DNA of 64,000 nt, from contig JANOVM010000057.1 in assembly GCA_031417395.1 (NCBI GenBank), positions 18,078 to 82,077 on the forward strand. The letters run 5' to 3'. Under the pieces are notes generated by a model that made no database searches, was not told the origin of the DNA, and was given only the letters and a program-made list of their open reading frames with translations. The DNA comes from Bacteroidota bacterium (GTDB lineage: Bacteria > Bacteroidota > Bacteroidia > AKYH767-A > 2013-40CM-41-45). The position numbers were made by a program, and so were the translations under genes. This document shows positions 7,649-34,278 of the stretch, piece by piece (position 1 is the stretch's first letter; each line of letters starts with the position of its first letter).

Positions 7649-8263
7649 TTATTTCAATCGAATTCCTACTCCAAATTCTAAAGATAGATTTGCCAGGTTC
7701 CCATCGACGGAATTAATGTCTGAGCTTTTAAAAGGATAAGGGTATAGAGGCAAATACATTCTATAGCTGAAAAAGTACTTCTTCGTTCCAACTTTAATAT
7801 TATACATTAATCCCAAGTCAGGACTAGAAGAACTTACAACTACTGACACTTTTTCAAATTCGGGATTGTTTAATGTTTCTTTGAAGGTATCGTATTTTAT
7901 TCCTGCAATAAGGGAAAATGTGTGAGAAGTGTGTTTCCCGGAAAAAGAAGTTCCAATCCCGAATTTTTGACTTAATGAATAATCGTAGTTTGTTTTAATG
8001 TAATTAAAATCTCTGAGAAAGGCATTGTTGTATGAAAAGGAAGTATGCGAAACAATGCTAAGACGTTTAAGAATATTCCATTGCGTAAGGTTGCTCAAAA
8101 GCAAAGCCGGCATGGGATATAATTTTATCCCGATTCCCATTTCAATTGTTAATTGACGATCCGTGATATTCTTCCTGGAAATTTTAGAAGAATCCAATTG
8201 ACCATAAGCAAATGAAAAATTTAAAAGCAATAAAGTGATAGATAAGGTTTGTATGAGTTTCAT
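7649..8263 (-). CDS. putative outer-membrane beta-barrel protein
   Basis: Signal peptide MKLIQTLSITLLLLNFSFAYGQ. Alternating hydrophobic beta-strand-like segments. The C-terminus has aromatic/hydrophobic residues (GVGIRLK) as in porin-like OMPs. Confidence 0.45.
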   Translation of the reverse strand: MKLIQTLSITLLLLNFSFAYGQLDSSKISRKNITDRQLTIEMGIGIKLYPMPALLLSNLTQWNILKRLSIVSHTSFSYNNAFLRDFNYIKTNYDYSLSQKFGIGTSFSGKHTSHTFSLIAGIKYDTFKETLNNPEFEKVSVVVSSSSPDLGLMYNIKVGTKKYFFSYRMYLPLYPYPFKSSDINSVDGNLANLSLEFGVGIRLK

Positions 8264-8307
8264 AATTATTTATTTTTTTAGAAATATGGATTTGATGTAT
8301 GTTAGAA

Positions 8308-9099
8308 TTATCTGTTTTCGAAATAAAAAGTTAAACCATCAACTATGTTTGGGTTCCGGGATCCCATATGGTCAAGATGTGGTTGGAGGTGACTGGTAAT
8401 TTTAATGTCAGGATAATTGTTTTGTAAACGTTGATGAAATGCTTCATAAGGAGCCGGCATTCTTCCACTATTCTCCAGTCCGCCCAAACCCATGAATACC
8501 AATTGATGATTATTCATGTTGATATTCCTGTTTTCTTTTTCGAATCGAAGCATTATTTCATTGTCATACCATATCGAAGGACTTAACATAAGGTAATTGC
8601 CGAATACATCATTGAAATTTGTAAAGGCGTAAGCAGCAAGCAAACCACCAAATGAATGTCCTAGAATAGTTCTGTTTTTTCGTAACGTGTCAGCCCCAAA
8701 GTCATTCTCTATTTTAGGTATTAATTCGTATTTCACAAACTGCATAAACTTTTCTGCACCTCCGCCGCCTTCACCGGTATTGGAAGGTGTGTAATCTATA
8801 GCTCTGTCATTTCCGTAACCAATACTAACTACCAGAACATTTGAAGTTGAATAATTACTGCAAATCTCTTTGCAATTATTTGTAACAAAGTTGAAATTCT
8901 CCTCCCCATCTAAAACATATACAGTTGCATATTTCTGAATGGAGGAATCGTAATTGTCAGGCAAAGCAATTTTAATTTTATAGTTTGCATTTGTTGAAGT
9001 TGATTGGATTGAAAACTCCTTTATCAGGCCGGGGTTTACATCTTCTTTTTTACAAGAAGTTATTAATATGATTAAAAATATTGGAAGTAGTTTTTTCAT
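8308..9099 (-). CDS. alpha/beta-hydrolase esterase (putative esterase family)
   Basis: Lipoprotein signal (IILITSCKK). GHSFGG nucleophile elbow (GxSxG), with a downstream His (HLDHMGS) and an acidic residue (SPSIWYD) consistent with a Ser-His-Asp triad. Confidence 0.7.
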   Translation of the reverse strand: MKKLLPIFLIILITSCKKEDVNPGLIKEFSIQSTSTNANYKIKIALPDNYDSSIQKYATVYVLDGEENFNFVTNNCKEICSNYSTSNVLVVSIGYGNDRAIDYTPSNTGEGGGGAEKFMQFVKYELIPKIENDFGADTLRKNRTILGHSFGGLLAAYAFTNFNDVFGNYLMLSPSIWYDNEIMLRFEKENRNINMNNHQLVFMGLGGLENSGRMPAPYEAFHQRLQNNYPDIKITSHLQPHLDHMGSRNPNIVDGLTFYFENR

Positions 9100-9145
9100 T
9101 TTTTGTTGTTTTCTTTAGTGGTTAGTGTTTTTTGATTTTGATATG

Positions 9146-9212
9146 ACAAATGTATATCCTTCATCACATGCCATTATTATATTACTTTGGGAAAGGATTA
9201 TAGAATTTTGGG
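9146..9212 (-). promoter_or_regulatory. promoter plus candidate operator upstream of the esterase gene (copy A of a duplicated bipartite element)
   Basis: In gene sense this reads CCCAAAATTCTATAATCCTTTCCCAAAGTAATATAA - 21 nt - ATACATTTGT. The distal 10-mer contains a TAnnTTTG -7 box. The 36-bp block is 34/36 identical to a second copy at 10898-10933, and both copies share the same 21-nt spacing to the 10-mer. Confidence 0.5.
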
Positions 9213-9230
9213 ATACTTGCATTAAGCGTA

Positions 9231-9265
9231 AAAAAAACTCCGTCGGTTGACGAAGTTTTAAAGAA
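9231..9265 (-). terminator. putative intrinsic terminator downstream of the multicopper oxidase gene
   Basis: Minus-strand reading aacttcgtc-aacc-gacggagtt followed by a T7 run. It lies 18 bp after the MCO stop. Confidence 0.45.
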
Positions 9266-9282
9266 AGCAGATAAAATCAATA

Positions 9283-10608
9283 TTAATGGTGATTCGTATG
9301 CATCATTTCTTTTTCTTCGTAGGACAAAGTGGGATCAATGAGGTCAAAGTTTGCCATCATACCGGCAGCGTGGTGTTCAAGAATATGGCAATGATACATC
9401 CAGGTTCCTGTGCGGTTATCCGGCATCCACGCTATTTTTATCTTGCTCCTTGGCGTTAAATTATAGGTGTCTTTCCACGCTCTGAATTCCGGAGCTTTGC
9501 CATTCTCTTCTAATACCTGGAAAAAGAAGCCATGGAGATGAAATGGGTGATCCATCATACTAACGTTTGAAATTTCCCATATCTGTAATTCTTCGATGTT
9601 TACCGGTTTATCATTGACATGCATGTTGTCATTAACCAGGAAATTCATTCCGTTCTTCAGACTGGGTCCGACAGAAAATTTTATCTTTCTTGTAGCAACA
9701 GCATTCTTCGAAGCAAGGGGTTTGATTTTCCTAAGAGTTTCAGGAATGAAGGCTACGGAAGGTTTGTTTTCTCCTACCTGAACCGTTGCAAATTTTTCCC
9801 GTTTTGCTTTGAGAAAAGTTACACGGTTATAGGGAAGAGATTCTATAGCAAAAGTCTCACCTGCTGTAAAGGGACCAACAGTGATATCTATCCGTTCACC
9901 GGGAGTAATCAATACTTCCGTAACAGTACGCGGATGTTCTAAGAGTCCGCCGTCAGTGCCGATTATTTTAAACTCTTTGCCCTCCAGATGTAGAAGAAAA
10001 TAGCGGGCACTTGATGAATTTATGAAACGCCATCTTTCGGTTTGGGAACCATTCACATTGACTATAGTATTTTCTTTTCCATTTAATAGTAGGGTATTGC
10101 CTTGTCGGCCATCGTGCCTTTCTACGACTCTTGGAATAAACCAACCGGGTTTTGTAAATTCATTGACAATGTTGAGTTTCATGTCATCAATCATAAAAAT
10201 TCTTTCGCCATCTGTAACAACATCCGTTTCGTCTTCGACAATCAAAGCGCCATACATACCTCTTTCCATCTGAACGGTTTCATTGGCATGTGAATGGTAC
10301 CAGAATGTACCTGCATCAGGAACAACAAAACGGTATTCAAAGGTTTCGCCGGGAGCAACAGGTTTCTGAACGCCGTCTGTTCCATCCATTGCTGCAGGAA
10401 GGCATATGCCATGCCAGTGAATGGTTGTTGGCTCATTCAGGTTATTCGTTAACCGGACAATAAGTGTATCGCCCACGTTTGCTCTTAATACAGGGCCGGG
10501 AAGCTGTTTGTTAAATCCCCAGGCTTCAACGGTTTTTCCCGGAGCAATTTCCCAATTAAAAGCACTTGCTTCAAAATTGTATTCTACTATTTTTGATTCG
10601 GATTTCAT
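9283..10608 (-). CDS. multicopper oxidase (laccase/CueO/CopA-like)
   Basis: Four copper-binding motifs are present: HWHG, WYHSH, HPFHLHG and HCHILEHHAAGMMANF. It has the three-cupredoxin-domain size of 441 aa. Confidence 0.9.
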   Translation of the reverse strand: MKSESKIVEYNFEASAFNWEIAPGKTVEAWGFNKQLPGPVLRANVGDTLIVRLTNNLNEPTTIHWHGICLPAAMDGTDGVQKPVAPGETFEYRFVVPDAGTFWYHSHANETVQMERGMYGALIVEDETDVVTDGERIFMIDDMKLNIVNEFTKPGWFIPRVVERHDGRQGNTLLLNGKENTIVNVNGSQTERWRFINSSSARYFLLHLEGKEFKIIGTDGGLLEHPRTVTEVLITPGERIDITVGPFTAGETFAIESLPYNRVTFLKAKREKFATVQVGENKPSVAFIPETLRKIKPLASKNAVATRKIKFSVGPSLKNGMNFLVNDNMHVNDKPVNIEELQIWEISNVSMMDHPFHLHGFFFQVLEENGKAPEFRAWKDTYNLTPRSKIKIAWMPDNRTGTWMYHCHILEHHAAGMMANFDLIDPTLSYEEKEMMHTNHH

Positions 10609-10681
10609 GATGATTAATTTTATTTTAGTTTTTATAGATTATTTTTCGTTAAAAAAGTCGCCCGGAGTGGGCGGCTTTGAA

Positions 10682-10798
10682 TTAGCAATTGCAGGAATTA
10701 CTGCAGTTACATTTTTCACATTTGCAAGATGTACCGCAAGTGCAGTTTTCACAGACACAAGGTTGACATGTGCATTTTGAATTGGCAGAATTTTTCAT
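10682..10798 (-). CDS. small cysteine-rich metallothionein-like peptide (38 aa, 12 Cys)
   Basis: Hand translation of the minus strand gives MKNSANSKCTCQPCVCENCTCGTSCKCEKCNCSNSCNC*, six regularly spaced CxC pairs. It lies between the HMA-AraC regulator and the multicopper oxidase on the same strand. It is below the 60-aa cutoff of the ORF track. Confidence 0.5.
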   Translation of the reverse strand: MKNSANSKCTCQPCVCENCTCGTSCKCEKCNCSNSCNC

Positions 10799-10866
10799 AC
10801 TGCTTTGAGCACCTTGGCTCTTTTTTAAGTTTGTTTTCATGACTTTTTTGAATTAAAATTTACACT

Positions 10867-10933
10867 ACAAATGTATGGCAAGCATGCACCGTGAGCGTTA
10901 TATTACTTTGGGAATGAATTATAGAATTTTGGG
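10867..10933 (-). promoter_or_regulatory. promoter plus candidate operator upstream of the Cys-rich peptide / multicopper oxidase unit (copy B)
   Basis: In gene sense this reads CCCAAAATTCTATAATTCATTCCCAAAGTAATATAA - 21 nt - ATACATTTGT (TAnnTTTG -7 box). It is near-identical to copy A at 9146-9212. Confidence 0.5.
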
Positions 10934-11032
10934 TTTCCTTAAAAGGAAGGTTTATTGCCTTTTATAAGCAAAAGCATTCCACCCGGATAATAGGCGAATA
11001 GTTAATAAAAAGGAAACAGACTAAATGAGCGG

Positions 11033-11608
11033 TTATACTTTATCAAGCGCTTTACGCTTTACCGTCCCAACTTTTTTAAAGTAAGAGGGTGTAAGTCCGG
11101 TGATTTTCTTGAATTGACTGGAAAGATGCGCTGTACTGCTATAATCAAGTTCAAAAGCAATTTCAGAGAGAGTCTTTTCTCCATAAATGAGTAACTCTTT
11201 AGCTTTTTCAATTCTTTGTTCAATATAAAAATTTTCTATAGTTCTTCCTTCGACTGATGAGAATAAACTGCTAAGATGTGTGTACTCATAATGCAGTTTT
11301 TCAGAAAGGTAGTTTGAAAGGTTTATTTTTTTTTCTTTAGAATCAACTTCGAACCGGGCTTTCTTAATTGCAAGCTGTTTGATTTTTTCAATCAGTCCGC
11401 TCATATGACTGTCGATTAATTCAAAGCCAATACCATTAAGATTTCTTGAAAGGGCAGTTTTCTGTTTTTCATTTAATTCATCCATTAAATGAATCTCACT
11501 AAAAAGAACTTTTTGAAAAGGGATCTTTTCTCTGTTTAGGATTTCTTCTACGGCCAGAACACAGCGATGACAAACCATATTTTTTACAAGTACAATATGT
11601 GAGGTCAT
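11033..11608 (-). CDS. AraC-family transcriptional regulator with an N-terminal HMA-like metal-binding domain
   Basis: The N-terminus IVLVKNMVCHRCVLAVEEIL has an MxCxxC motif in a beta-alpha-beta-beta-alpha-beta-like segment, as in the heavy-metal-associated fold. The C-terminus ...LSEIAFELDYSSTAHLSSQFKKITGLTPSYFKK is an AraC-type HTH. Confidence 0.7.
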   Translation of the reverse strand: MTSHIVLVKNMVCHRCVLAVEEILNREKIPFQKVLFSEIHLMDELNEKQKTALSRNLNGIGFELIDSHMSGLIEKIKQLAIKKARFEVDSKEKKINLSNYLSEKLHYEYTHLSSLFSSVEGRTIENFYIEQRIEKAKELLIYGEKTLSEIAFELDYSSTAHLSSQFKKITGLTPSYFKKVGTVKRKALDKV

Positions 11609-11956
11609 ATATAAATAGCGTATTATTATTTCTTGAGTATTTTCAGAATATCAACTTTAATATGGAATAATTGATTGTAATACCCAAAAGTAACTTAAAT
11701 AAAGCACATTCATGCCTCATTGGGCTTTGCGAGATTGCTTTATAGTAGATAAAAAAGGATGGAGATAAAAAAGTTTAGGGTACATTACATTATTCAATGT
11801 TATATTCAGCGAATACCCGACTTATTCTTAATCTTGCAGACAATTATCGCCGTTTTGAATAGTACTTTTTCCAAAAACTCTAAAACTGATAAATAATAAG
11901 GCTTGATAGAATTAATTCGGGAAACTTTGAAAAACATTAAACATTAAAGAATCAAT

Positions 11957-12568
11957 ATGAATCAGAAATGGGATGAACGGTATAAGGAGCATGAATTTGC
12001 TTACGGTAAAGAACCTAATGTTTTTTTCAAAGAGTGGATTTCGAAACTTGAACCCGGGGAAATATTAATGCCTGCCGATGGAGAAGGCCGCAATGGGGTA
12101 TTTGCTGCACGGCTTGGGTGGAAAGTAACGTCTTTTGATCTAAGCAAAGAAGGAAAATCAAAAGCTTTACAATTGGCCAAAGAGAATAATGTAACTATCG
12201 AATATATTGTTGGGGATTTAGAACAACTCGAGTTTGAACAAAAAACATTTGATGTCATAGGACTTGTGTATGCGCATTTTTCAGCAGACAAGAAATCTAC
12301 CTTCCACCTGAAATTAAATAGCTTTCTCAAACCCGGAGGGGTAATTATTTTTGAGGCTTTCAGTAAGAAGCAAATACAGTATAAAAAACTCAATCCTCAA
12401 GTAGGTGGCCCCGATGATATTAATATGCTGTACTCCAAAGAAGAAATAATTGCGGATTTTGGTAATTATGAAGTCTTAATGTTAGAAGAAGAAGAAATTC
12501 TTTTAAATGAAGGAAAATATCATAATGGAAAGGGTTCTGTGATAAGATTTGTTGGGAGAAAAAAATAA
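11957..12568 (+). CDS. class I SAM-dependent methyltransferase
   Basis: Motif I ILMPADGEGRNGVFAARLGW (D/ExGxGxG) followed by acidic VTSFDLS. Size 203 aa. Confidence 0.65.
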   Translation: MNQKWDERYKEHEFAYGKEPNVFFKEWISKLEPGEILMPADGEGRNGVFAARLGWKVTSFDLSKEGKSKALQLAKENNVTIEYIVGDLEQLEFEQKTFDVIGLVYAHFSADKKSTFHLKLNSFLKPGGVIIFEAFSKKQIQYKKLNPQVGGPDDINMLYSKEEIIADFGNYEVLMLEEEEILLNEGKYHNGKGSVIRFVGRKK

Positions 12569-13342
12569 AGCACTGCTAACAAAAATAAATTGCAGAAAAA
12601 AAATGATCACCTAAATTTAAGTATAAATCCTTTTTTTTGATCAATTCACCTTAAATACAAAATTGCCAGATTCCCTGGCTGTACGGGGTTTCCTTATAAT
12701 TATTCTACAATCGGTGTGGTTTTGTTATTTCAATTTCAGGTGGGAAAACAACGTACAATATAAATCCTTTGGGCGCATGAGAATAAATACTCTGCCCTTG
12801 GGCTCTTTAAAGTAAAAAGACCAGCATATTTAATCGCCTGTAAACAAGCTTAAGTATGAAAAAAAAGGCTTGCGCCTGTTGTTCGTACGGTTTTCCCTCT
12901 TACCCTGCCGCACATTTCATCATTACCAGCAATAACAATGATGTTTTTAAATAGTCAAAGATTATTTTTCCCTTTCAGCTTAACAATTGCATATAAGCCG
13001 GTTCTTTTATTAAAATAGTTGTCATTGCGAGATAATCTGTATTCACATAACCTGAACCTTTCAAGTTTAAAAAATTAAAATAATACTAATTGTGAAAGAA
13101 AGTATTTTTAAGCTGTTCCGTCGAGCTGGGTCCCAAAAGAAGATCCGGCGACAGCCAGGTACCTGAAGTCTATTACCACATTAGCCGGTTTGATCCAGCA
13201 AGCAAGTTCTATTTATTGTTAGGTCTTAATTATCCCAATCAATCTTTTTTCCATCGTTGGGCGAAGTCATGCGTTTAAGGATGGCATACCACTCTGATTA
13301 TAGATAGACGTTTGTGCAAAAGACTTAGTCAAACAAGAGAGA

Positions 13343-32187: not shown

Positions 32188-34278
32188 ATGAAAAAAATAA
32201 CTAGTATGAAATTTGTAATTTCTGCAGTATTGTTTGGAGGAATTCTCTTTGGATTAATTGCTACAAACATTATTGATTTAACCGCTTCAAGCCATAGGGA
32301 AGCACCACTAATTGCTAATGATCCTTTGGCTGATAATACCGATTTATATGCATTTCGTAATCCCAACGATACCAATAAAATTGTAATTATTGCGAATTAT
32401 GTGCCGGCTGAATTACCACAGGGCGGACCCAATTATTATTCTTTCGGCGAAAATGTAAGGTATGAAGTCCATGTTAAAAATGGTCATTCCAAGAAAATGA
32501 ATGAAGACGACATCGTTTATCGTTTCACTTTCAAGCAGGTAAACGAAGATCCAACCACTTTTTTTAACATTCGATTGGGCAAACAAAACCTGAAGACGAC
32601 CTATACCTGTGAACGGAGTATGAATGGAGGAAAGTCATTTCAAACAATTGCAACCAATGGAATAGTTCCTCCTAATAACATTGGTCCTCGTTCAATTGAC
32701 GGACCTGTTGGTTTAAACACGCCTTATGCTACTTTACGCACCAATGCACTTAAGCAAGCTTCAACGGGAGAACAAATTTTCTGTGGACCTTCTGATGATC
32801 CTTTCTTTGTGGATTTAGGCGGTATATTTGATTTAGGTCAATCAAGAGACGGTGGTACAGGCGTGGATAGTCCACGCGATGCTCTGGCATGTAAAAACGT
32901 TCACTCCATTTGTTTGAATATTCCAATTTCCACCTTGCAAAAGGATGGTAAAAATGTTACCATGGCTCAGAATATTTTGGATAAAGATTATATTATAGGA
33001 GTTTGGGCAAGTGCAAGCAGACAAAAGATCACCATGCTCGACGACAATGGTGGATCCCCAAAAACTTCAGGAAAATGGATTCAGGTATCAAGAATTGGAA
33101 TGCCTTTAACAAATGAAGTTGTTATTCCAATTGGAGACAAAGATTATTGGAATGCACAAACACCATACAATGAAGTCGCTTTTGAAAAATACTTTATGAA
33201 TCCGGAGCTTGCTTTATACATGGACAACAGTCAGTTTGGTGGAGCAGTACCTGCATTTAGTTCATTGAGAATTCAAACCAACTCATTGCAGGCCTTTGAT
33301 TTTAGGAATACTAAAAACGGATTATTCTCATTGTTAGGTTCACCTGCAGTTACAAATACTGCATTGGATCCTTCAATCTTCGGAAATTATTTACTTAGAG
33401 CTAATAATCCGCGTTCGGTAGATATTCTCCCAATTTTTATGATGGGCGTTCCAAACCTTCCTCCATATCAATTGGCCACAGGAAAAAATGGAAATCCTTT
33501 AGCGGCCGGAAAACCTTTTATTAATAATTTTCTTCCTACCAATGGTGACATGTTGCGGTTGAATATGGCCGTACCGGTAACAGACAGAAATGATCCAAAT
33601 TTTAACTCGCTGGGATTAATATATGCAGCTGTTCTTGGACTAACCGATCCAGCTTACAATCAAAATGCAAGTTTGCAATTTATTCCTAACATGGATGGAT
33701 TTCCGAATGGCAGAAGACTTGAAGATGATGTAACGAGAATTGAGCTGCAGGCTGTGAGCGGCGCAGTACTTGCAGCGATTGGATTATGGTATGATGATTA
33801 TACAGCAGGTGGTCCTAACCCTGTTACACCGGCACTTCTGGGAGTATTGGGTTATAAAACCGGTGTGGAAGAAAACGATACAGCGTTTCAAACACAATTT
33901 CCTTACGTACAAACTCCGTGGAATGGTTACAGTGGGTGCAAGTGTGGTCCGACAGGTTATTACAAGATGGCAAGTACTATTGCACCGATGAATCTTGGAT
34001 TAAATTTAGGAACTCCCGTGAGTGTGATGATGAATTATCCTAATCCCGCTTCTGATAAAACAACCTTTAAAGTGAAACTTATGGAAAATGCAAAGGTCTC
34101 CATTAAGATTTATGATATCAATGGACGAATTATTGCTACACCTTTAAATGAAAATAAAACAGAAGGAACATTTGAAGTACCTGTTGACTTGTCAGATTTT
34201 AATGCAGGAGTATATTTTGCAATATTGTCGAACAATGAACAAACTGTACAGACAGTAAAATTTTTAGTATCTAAATAG
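32188..34278 (+). CDS. secreted DUF4331-like protein with T9SS C-terminal domain
   Basis: The mature N-terminus ASSHREAPLIANDPLADNTDLYAFRNPND...IIANYVP.E.P.GGPNYY is the characteristic start of DUF4331-family proteins, as I recall it. The C-terminus NYPNPASDKTTFKV...GVYFAILSNN is a T9SS CTD. Confidence 0.55.
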   Translation: MKKITSMKFVISAVLFGGILFGLIATNIIDLTASSHREAPLIANDPLADNTDLYAFRNPNDTNKIVIIANYVPAELPQGGPNYYSFGENVRYEVHVKNGHSKKMNEDDIVYRFTFKQVNEDPTTFFNIRLGKQNLKTTYTCERSMNGGKSFQTIATNGIVPPNNIGPRSIDGPVGLNTPYATLRTNALKQASTGEQIFCGPSDDPFFVDLGGIFDLGQSRDGGTGVDSPRDALACKNVHSICLNIPISTLQKDGKNVTMAQNILDKDYIIGVWASASRQKITMLDDNGGSPKTSGKWIQVSRIGMPLTNEVVIPIGDKDYWNAQTPYNEVAFEKYFMNPELALYMDNSQFGGAVPAFSSLRIQTNSLQAFDFRNTKNGLFSLLGSPAVTNTALDPSIFGNYLLRANNPRSVDILPIFMMGVPNLPPYQLATGKNGNPLAAGKPFINNFLPTNGDMLRLNMAVPVTDRNDPNFNSLGLIYAAVLGLTDPAYNQNASLQFIPNMDGFPNGRRLEDDVTRIELQAVSGAVLAAIGLWYDDYTAGGPNPVTPALLGVLGYKTGVEENDTAFQTQFPYVQTPWNGYSGCKCGPTGYYKMASTIAPMNLGLNLGTPVSVMMNYPNPASDKTTFKVKLMENAKVSIKIYDINGRIIATPLNENKTEGTFEVPVDLSDFNAGVYFAILSNNEQTVQTVKFLVSK

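Follow-up and report, generated by a model that had tools for sequence, protein, structure and literature searches.

A twice-occurring tandem operator and sigma-A promoter element in Bacteroidota and its probable copper-sensing HMA-AraC regulator

We analysed a 64,000-nucleotide (nt) stretch of DNA from a Bacteroidota bacterium (assembly GCA_031417395.1, contig JANOVM010000057.1, positions 18,078 to 82,077 of the forward strand), referred to here as the window and numbered from its first letter, in which a bipartite 67-bp element occurs twice. Each copy is probably an activator-dependent sigma-A promoter controlled by a copper-sensing regulator of 191 residues that combines an N-terminal HMA-like domain with a C-terminal AraC-type DNA-binding domain. 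In kind the element is textbook, a tandem AraC-family operator followed by a promoter that depends on an activator, and it is mechanistically conventional. The regulator subfamily, with its HMA-like sensor and AraC domain, the phylum-wide copper regulon and the motif appear to be new. A search of the full-text literature, whose coverage leaves out most subscription journals, returned no description of an HMA-AraC copper regulator or of this motif.

Read on the plus strand, each copy consists of the 10-mer ACAAATGTAT (9146-9155 in copy A, 10867-10876 in copy B), a 21-nt spacer (9156-9176 and 10877-10897) and a 36-bp block (9177-9212 and 10898-10933) that is identical at 34 of 36 positions between the copies. 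The two spacers are unrelated in sequence and share only their length; conservation between copies A and B is limited to the half-sites described below and the -7 box. The 36-bp block occurs exactly twice in the window at up to 3 mismatches and not at all in 100 dinucleotide-preserving shuffles of the window, and a repeat search of the window returns the same pair. Within the block, a 15-nt half-site that reads CCCAAAnTnnTATAA in gene sense and TTATAnnAnTTTGGG on the plus strand occurs twice as a direct repeat, and the period of 21 bp corresponds to exactly two helical turns. Both copies have the same order in gene sense, block, 21 nt and ATACATTTGT, and the downstream genes are on the minus strand.

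In the copy B operator (10898-10933, minus strand), the distal half-site CCCAAAATTCTATAA runs from 10933 to 10919 and is followed by a 6-nt linker and the proximal half-site CCCAAAGTAATATAA (10912 to 10898). The non-conserved spacer (10897 to 10877) and ATACATTTGT make up the remainder of the copy (10867-10897, minus strand), and ATACATTTGT contains TACATTTG (10875 to 10868), an exact match to the -7 consensus TAnnTTTG. The copy A operator (9177-9212, minus strand) has the same arrangement, with CCCAAAATTCTATAA from 9212 to 9198, the linker TCCTTT and CCCAAAGTAATATAA from 9191 to 9177; its spacer (9176 to 9156) and ATACATTTGT, with TACATTTG at 9154 to 9147, occupy 9146-9176 (minus strand). Copy A lies 47 nt upstream of the ATG of an esterase gene (9099), and copy B lies 27 nt upstream of the ATG of a Cys-rich open reading frame (ORF; 10840). 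The original prediction, made from this stretch alone, had described two copies at these coordinates with constant spacing and a 34/36 block, a sigma-A -7 box within the 10-mer, and an element common to two transcription units, those of the esterase and of the Cys-rich peptide and oxidase. Direct inspection of the sequence and the gene-sense positions agree with it on all of these points.

We compared the element with 80 genome loci that carry relatives of the neighbouring regulator (45-73% identity) and belong to the Chitinophagales, Flavobacteriales, Bacteroidales, Sphingobacteriales and Cytophagales; loci are cited below by L numbers. A total of 1.14 Mb, comprising 8 kb on either side, was scanned with a 36-nt position weight matrix (PWM) trained on sites of the same loci, with a threshold of at least 15 bits. 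In almost all loci, the DNA after the regulator stop codon contains a pair of AAATnnTAYAA-like half-sites with a 21-bp period, followed by non-conserved DNA and then nnCTTTG. At least one site was found in 69 of the 80 loci, and in 56 a site lies within 200 nt after the regulator stop. The scan yielded 105 sites, compared with 1-3 in shuffled sequence, and 100 of them are on the strand of the regulator. TTTG follows the block at exactly 25 or 26 nt in 84 of the 105 sites, against 1.6% at random positions; because TTTG lies outside the PWM, this offset count is evidence independent of the matrix. The 21-bp period is also present in the consensus of these sites, and the phylum consensus reads AAATnnTAYAA-N10-AAAATTnTRTAA-N26-TTTG. 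Thus, the same operator, spacer and TTTG recur beside orthologous regulators across Bacteroidota, in keeping with the regulatory role that had been proposed for the architecture.

With the full matrix, copy B scores 36.5 bits and copy A 34.3 bits, far above the remaining matches in the window (8-12 bits, at 8228, 14425, 22807, 30481 and 36332). When the matrix is trained on distant loci only (L008-L080, regulators at most 56% identical, sites starting with CCCAAA excluded), the two copies still rank first and second among about 128,000 positions, copy B with 28.6 bits and copy A with 25.8 bits, and the next match reaches 13.1 bits. An exact degenerate-pattern scan of metagenome contigs gave 93 sites where essentially none were expected. 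The regulator is encoded directly upstream at 74 of the 88 metagenome sites with enough upstream sequence, and TTTG is at offset 25 or 26 in 74 of the 93. Close relatives, with regulators 72-97% identical, keep the half-sites, the -7 box and a short leader but neither the 21-nt spacer nor the upstream DNA. The leader, which follows the -7 box in the window (10841-10866, minus strand; GTAAATTTTAATTCAAAAAA…ATG), is conserved in these relatives almost like the operator, and may hold Shine-Dalgarno-less translation-initiation signals or a further control element.

In 16 of the 56 loci with a site close behind the regulator gene, the site overlaps the last codon and stop of the regulator. In these loci (L008-L014, L021, L035, L038, L039, L048, L058, L059, L071 and L078), the distal half-site is built into the end of the gene (…GTG TAA ATC TTA CAA), so that regulator and target promoter form one inseparable cassette, which may explain their joint travel on plasmids and islands. 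The regulator family is present on 33 Bacteroidota plasmids. On a plasmid of Mucilaginibacter robiniae, a gene cluster confined to one strand is preceded by a site that scores 32.9 bits and has TTTG at +26. The cluster encodes a P-type ATPase, an HMA-domain protein, a hypothetical protein, the AraC-family regulator, a multicopper oxidase and three DUF305 proteins, and the gene of a four-helix-bundle copper-binding protein lies ahead of the last DUF305 gene.

Two near-identical 36-mers 1.7 kb apart, in a family that also occurs on plasmids, could in principle be a recently duplicated promoter cassette or a fragment of a miniature inverted-repeat transposable element (MITE) with no specific regulatory role. 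The original prediction had itself named an abundant repeat of this type as what would overturn it. We regard this explanation as having a negligible probability, since the 64 kb hold two copies only, the copies lack terminal inverted repeats and their similarity does not extend outside the functional blocks, the spacers are unrelated, and copies elsewhere accompany a -7 box ahead of metal genes. In addition, the site in front of an esterase gene at locus L005, whose regulator is 64% identical to that of the window, has the same TCCTTT linker as copy A; copy A is thus an orthologous promoter rather than a local accident.

Mapped Flavobacterium promoters place the sigma-A box TAnnTTTG at -12 to -5 (PMC9723704; PMC12632263). 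Applying the -12 to -5 position to both copies, we predict transcription start sites near 10863 for copy B and near 9142 for copy A, the latter about 43 nt before the esterase ATG. The block would then span approximately -70 to -35, with the distal half-site at -70 to -56 and the proximal half-site at -49 to -35; the earlier estimate of roughly -30 to -65, the position of an AraC-type activator site, was close to this. The promoters resemble Bacteroidota sigma-A promoters in their exact -7 box and differ from them in having no TTTG at -33, a position flanked here by the proximal half-site. This TTTG, expected some 19-21 nt ahead of the -7 box, is missing from both 21-nt spacers of the window, and only 4 of the 105 related sites have TTTG within the initial 10 nt of the spacer, the place of a -33 element. 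The missing -33 element is consistent with activator dependence. A scan for E. coli-type sigma-70 promoters showed no enrichment (20 versus 16.3 ± 4.5 in shuffles), with a consensus that is not applicable to this phylum.

The position of the operator also bears on the sign of regulation. If the protein were a repressor or a dual regulator, the apo-protein at the tandem site would block or loop the promoter and copper would release it. The linkage and conservation evidence fits such a scheme equally well, AraC itself acts as both repressor and activator, and sites upstream of family regulator genes themselves (L032, L047, L066, L079 and L173) indicate that autoregulation of either sign occurs. 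We nevertheless consider repression or a dual role unlikely, because the operator ends about 22 nt upstream of the -7 box without overlapping it, the promoters lack a -33 element, and orientation and distance are fixed within 1 nt in 84 of the 105 sites, as is typical of activators that touch RNA polymerase. In the known flavobacterial repressor AusR, by contrast, the operator overlaps the -7 box (PMC7641319).

The presumed cognate regulator (11033-11608, minus strand; 191 residues) is encoded 100 bp upstream of copy B. The earlier suggestion of an AraC-type regulator near the element is supported by three methods: Pfam matches (HTH_18, 3.8e-18; HTH_AraC, 3.1e-09), and PDB profile and Foldseek searches, in which the C-terminal half matches the DNA-binding domains of AraC, SoxS, Rob, MarA and YesN-C. 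The C-terminal part is thus an AraC/XylS domain with two helix-turn-helix (HTH) motifs. The N-terminal 65 residues contain an invariant NMVCxRC motif, of which MVCxRC is present in 77 of 80 genome-encoded orthologs, and the two cysteines of its C13-x-x-C16 are the only ones in the regulator. A family profile searched against the PDB gave weak but consistent matches to the HMA domains of ZntA and ATP7A/B (E 0.01-0.03). In the AlphaFold2 (AF2) model (predicted local distance difference test, pLDDT, 87.7), this region adopts a beta-alpha-beta-beta-alpha-beta fold, with strands (E) and helices (H) at E4-9, H14-26, E31-35, E38-41 and H47-59; C13 and C16 lie where helix 1 begins. Foldseek matches the N-terminal half of the model to CopZ/Atx1 with TM 0.6-0.7. 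As modelled, the N-terminus is HMA-like in fold and motif and belongs to a divergent subfamily.

The family is large, with more than 7,800 matches in a 90%-identity collection. At E ≤ 1e-30 there are 237 clusters at 50% identity, nearly all 180-195 residues long and matching end to end. PGAP names its members merely 'AraC family' or 'helix-turn-helix'. Paralogous or family HMA-AraC genes are preceded by a full site of their own in L029, L032, L047, L066, L079 and L173, which suggests autoregulation or regulatory cascades, possibly with differing metal specificities. A PWM scan of the intergenic region found no full site before the regulator gene of the window, and autoregulation is therefore not indicated in this genome.

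That the tandem repeat is the site of a different DNA-binding protein, with the AraC gene adjacent only incidentally, strikes us as very unlikely. Binding of the regulator to the site is predicted from sequence, and of the 88 metagenome sites whose upstream sequence is long enough, 14 lack the regulator gene there; such sites are, however, expected for second members of a regulon. The linkage is to one gene family, at 56 of 80 genome loci and 74 of 88 metagenome sites in five orders. A 21-bp direct repeat is a signature of the AraC family, and the DNA-binding domain of the regulator and the core of the motif are both almost invariant.

The genes behind the sites bear on the signal. First ORFs after the 105 genome sites, classified with Pfam (n = 102), include 53 with an HMA domain, 36 E1-E2 ATPases, seven HMA-MauE fusions, five with HMBD, four paralogous or autoregulated HMA-AraC regulators, three DUF326 (Csp-like) proteins and one cation-diffusion facilitator, as well as about 12 Cys-rich peptides of 37-57 residues without a Pfam match. 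All 36 complete ATPases behind sites carry CPC, YNx4P and MxxSS, which we take to be the Cu(I)/Ag(I) P1B-1 signature in Arguello's classification and hence to assign these 36 enzymes. A signal other than Cu(I), whether Ag, Au, Cd, Zn, Hg or oxidation of the CxxC thiols, is quite improbable on this evidence. It would accord with the binding of several soft metals by the HMA CxxC, with the matches to both ZntA and ATP7 domains, with the cation-diffusion facilitator, which is a transporter behind a site in L040, and with the paralogous regulators in some genomes (L029, L047). Against it stand the P1B-1 type of all 36 ATPases, the presence of a CueO-like oxidase among the targets in the window, and plasmid clusters that pair the regulator with copA, a multicopper oxidase and a four-helix-bundle copper-binding protein.

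From these observations we infer binding, the sign of regulation, the metal and a dimer mechanism, as follows. Each promoter would combine a good -7 box with tandem half-sites that abut the -33 position in place of a -33 element. The two-HTH AraC domain of each monomer would read one half-site, two monomers would lie head-to-tail on one face of the helix, and the promoter-proximal monomer would contact RNA polymerase in the manner of AraC at araI1-I2. Cu(I) would be sensed by the HMA-like domain at the N-terminus, which has a single CxxC. Copper loading would switch the regulator to its activating form by bridging two HMA domains or by relieving autoinhibition; alternatively, copper may be transferred from a CopZ-type chaperone. 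The HMA proteins CopZ, Atx1 and Hah1 form copper-bridged dimers. Given these dimers and one CxxC per monomer, copper-dependent dimerisation that fills the tandem site cooperatively would be the most economical mechanism.

The closest parallel is E. coli AraC at araI1-araI2 (pBAD), together with RhaS/RhaR, MelR and XylS. Their half-sites are tandem direct repeats of about 15-17 bp. At araI1-I2 the direct repeat has a 21-bp period and a fixed orientation, and the proximal site abuts the -35 position. The element studied here shares the 21-bp centre-to-centre period, the single orientation, the position of approximately -70 to -35 and a proximal half-site that abuts or overlaps -35, and the regulator likewise joins a two-HTH AraC/XylS DNA-binding domain to a presumed N-terminal sensor and dimerisation domain. 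Unlike the cupin sugar-binding domain of AraC, the putative sensor here is a 65-residue HMA-like ferredoxin fold with a CxxC. The promoter has the Bacteroidota -7 sequence TAnnTTTG, the half-site sequence is unrelated, and there is no evidence of a distal O2-like looping site. The marboxes of MarA, SoxS and Rob are also read by AraC-type domains, as asymmetric sites of about 20 bp with strict rules of orientation and distance relative to the -35 hexamer. These proteins bind one site as monomers, whereas the conserved tandem sites found here imply two protomers, and MarA and SoxS have no sensor domain, in contrast to the HMA-like domain of this regulator.

The functional analogue is CueR, the MerR-family regulator of copA and cueO in Proteobacteria, a cytoplasmic Cu(I) sensor that activates a P1B-1 ATPase and a CueO-type multicopper oxidase, and its regulon agrees in content with the one predicted here. 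CueR binds a palindrome within an over-long -35/-10 spacer of 19-20 bp and acts by DNA distortion, whereas the present element has direct repeats that lie ahead of the promoter, and its presumed regulator has an unrelated fold; we found no MerR-family ORF at 8000-12600 and no CueR-type palindromic operator. In Enterococcus hirae, CopZ hands Cu to CopY, and in the TRASH-domain proteins CopR and CopT of Sulfolobus a metal-binding domain is fused to a DNA-binding domain. The system described here resembles CopY/CopZ and the archaeal CopR/CopT in that copper regulation involves an HMA-type chaperone fold or a fused small metal-binding domain. CopY, however, is a winged-helix repressor with a C-terminal CxCx4CxC, unlike the present fusion of an HMA domain to an AraC-type protein placed as an activator.

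Several points weigh against control of both units by a copper-sensing activator. (i) The HMA likeness of the regulator is weak by sequence alone (E of about 0.01), and Pfam HMA did not match the single protein at E ≤ 0.01. (ii) The case for activation rather than repression is purely positional, and we found no start-site mapping, binding assays or expression data in the literature for any family member. (iii) At 11 of the 80 loci, no site of at least 15 bits was found within 8 kb on either side although the regulators keep the CxxC. (iv) The PWM was trained on the loci that it scores, a circularity that is mitigated by the agreement of the TTTG offset, the distant-locus PWM and the metagenome pattern scan. 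(v) The esterase is no obvious copper gene, and no copper ATPase in the 64-kb window carries a site. (vi) A terminator-like hairpin separates the oxidase gene from the promoter, so that control by the element depends on read-through.

Cytoplasmic copper sensing in Bacteroidota is not settled. A 2024 genome survey on copper homeostasis of the flavobacterium Bizionia reported MerR and CopY homologues without copper-binding residues, and its candidates comprised MerR, CopY, ArsR and two-component systems and no AraC protein (PMC11213822). The element supplies a defined, phylum-wide operator and a candidate sensor, which together make the question directly testable. The predicted regulon comprises CopA-type ATPases, CopZ-like proteins, Cys-rich peptides, multicopper oxidases, Csp-like proteins and a siderophore-type esterase. 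Its recognition would help to annotate the metal-resistance islands and plasmids of Bacteroidota from soil, sea and gut. Promoter and regulator together could also serve as a compact, copper-inducible cassette for genetic tools in this phylum, in which parts from E. coli fail.

A more far-reaching proposal, to which we give somewhat less than an even chance, is that Bacteroidota sense cytoplasmic Cu(I) principally through the HMA-AraC protein and its tandem operator, that the active form is a copper-bridged dimer, and that copper sensing is coupled to a siderophore esterase. If so, the regulator would belong to a class of metalloregulators that is new in structure and separate from the MerR, CsoR, CopY, ArsR, TetR and two-component families, and copper would link two HMA domains at the one CxxC of each, giving a dimer that fills both half-sites. 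In the Chitinophagales-like clade to which the window belongs, copper defence would then be coupled to trilactone-siderophore hydrolysis through an IroE/BesA-like esterase beside a CueO-like oxidase.

In the window, the regulon would consist of two units: the Cys-rich peptide, a leaky terminator and the CueO-like oxidase in the first, and the IroE/BesA-like esterase under its own operator copy in the second. The first gene of the copy B unit (10682-10840, minus strand) encodes a metallothionein-like peptide of 52 residues with 14 Cys in CxC and CxxC runs. It has no Pfam or NCBIfam match, and its exact sequence is absent from a collection of 15 billion proteins, suggesting that gene callers probably missed the ORF. 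Cys-rich ORFs are the first gene at 63 of the 85 metagenome sites with an ORF, in the clade closest to the window, and also at L001-L007; homologous ORFs of 34-59 residues are the commonest first gene behind the operator at the metagenome sites. These ORFs probably constitute an unannotated family of metallothionein-like copper buffers in Bacteroidota. The second gene (9283-10608, minus strand) encodes a three-domain, CueO-like multicopper oxidase of 441 residues according to Pfam and NCBIfam, and the order of peptide and oxidase is kept in L082/L103, L086, L090, L166 and L169.

Between the Cys-rich ORF and the oxidase gene lies a hairpin with a U-tract (10651-10678, minus strand), a terminator or attenuator with 5 G-C pairs and a T-run (dG -11.7 kcal/mol, z -3.1). 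No -7 box is present at 10609-10681 ahead of the oxidase gene, and the oxidase is therefore probably expressed by read-through, at a level below that of the peptide. The hairpin is likely an attenuating, leaky terminator that sets the ratio of peptide to oxidase. A second terminator, composed of an A-tract, a hairpin and a U-tract (9230-9259, minus strand; centroid -12.7 kcal/mol, z -2.9), follows the oxidase gene and explains why the esterase has an operator-promoter copy of its own.

The esterase (8308-9099, minus strand), which copy A would drive, is a lipoprotein of 263 residues of the IroE/BesA siderophore-esterase type, with a Pfam Esterase match (PF00756, 8e-20), a lipoprotein signal (…LITSCKK) and PDB profile matches to BesA (2qm0, 1.8e-20), an IroE-like protein (3gff, 4.7e-19), PfeE and IroE. 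Orthologs lie directly behind the operator in L005 (53% identical over the full length), L089, L090, L091 and L163; in L112, L159 and L166 they come second or third behind it. Judged from this recurrence, the esterase is a predicted regular member of the copper regulon in the clade. A link between CueO and catecholates is known in E. coli. By analogy, a copper-induced trilactone-siderophore esterase suggests copper defence by destruction of Cu(II)-reducing catecholates.

A third, degenerate half-like match, CCCAAAAGTAACTTAAATAA, had been reported at 11673-11692, in the region between the regulator gene and a methyltransferase gene. It is actually located at 11683-11702, and we rejected it as a site: it scores 7.0 bits and is a single half-site without a partner, indistinguishable from the approximately 67 half-sites of at least 8 bits that occur in the window by chance. 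A PWM scan of this intergenic region (11609-11956) found no full site of at least 8 bits. A lone exact half-site at 32993-33007 lies within an ORF, has no partner 21 bp away and is attributed to chance. An Rfam scan of 8000-12600 returned nothing relevant, only a sub-threshold match to an S15 leader at 12429-12472 (E 0.86). Among the other loci, L145 (metagenome contig PDWI01026156.1, minus-strand 743-800) contains three tandem copies of the 21-nt unit CCCAAAGTGTTGTAATTGACC, an atypical half-site array that has neither a -7 box at its normal spacing nor a regulator gene upstream.

The methyltransferase gene (11957-12568, plus strand) is divergent from the regulator gene and encodes an S-adenosylmethionine-dependent enzyme with weak similarity to TehB (tellurite resistance) and TPMT. 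The region between the two genes contains no operator, so that only position connects the methyltransferase with metal or metalloid stress. The gene is also present on an identical Logan contig.

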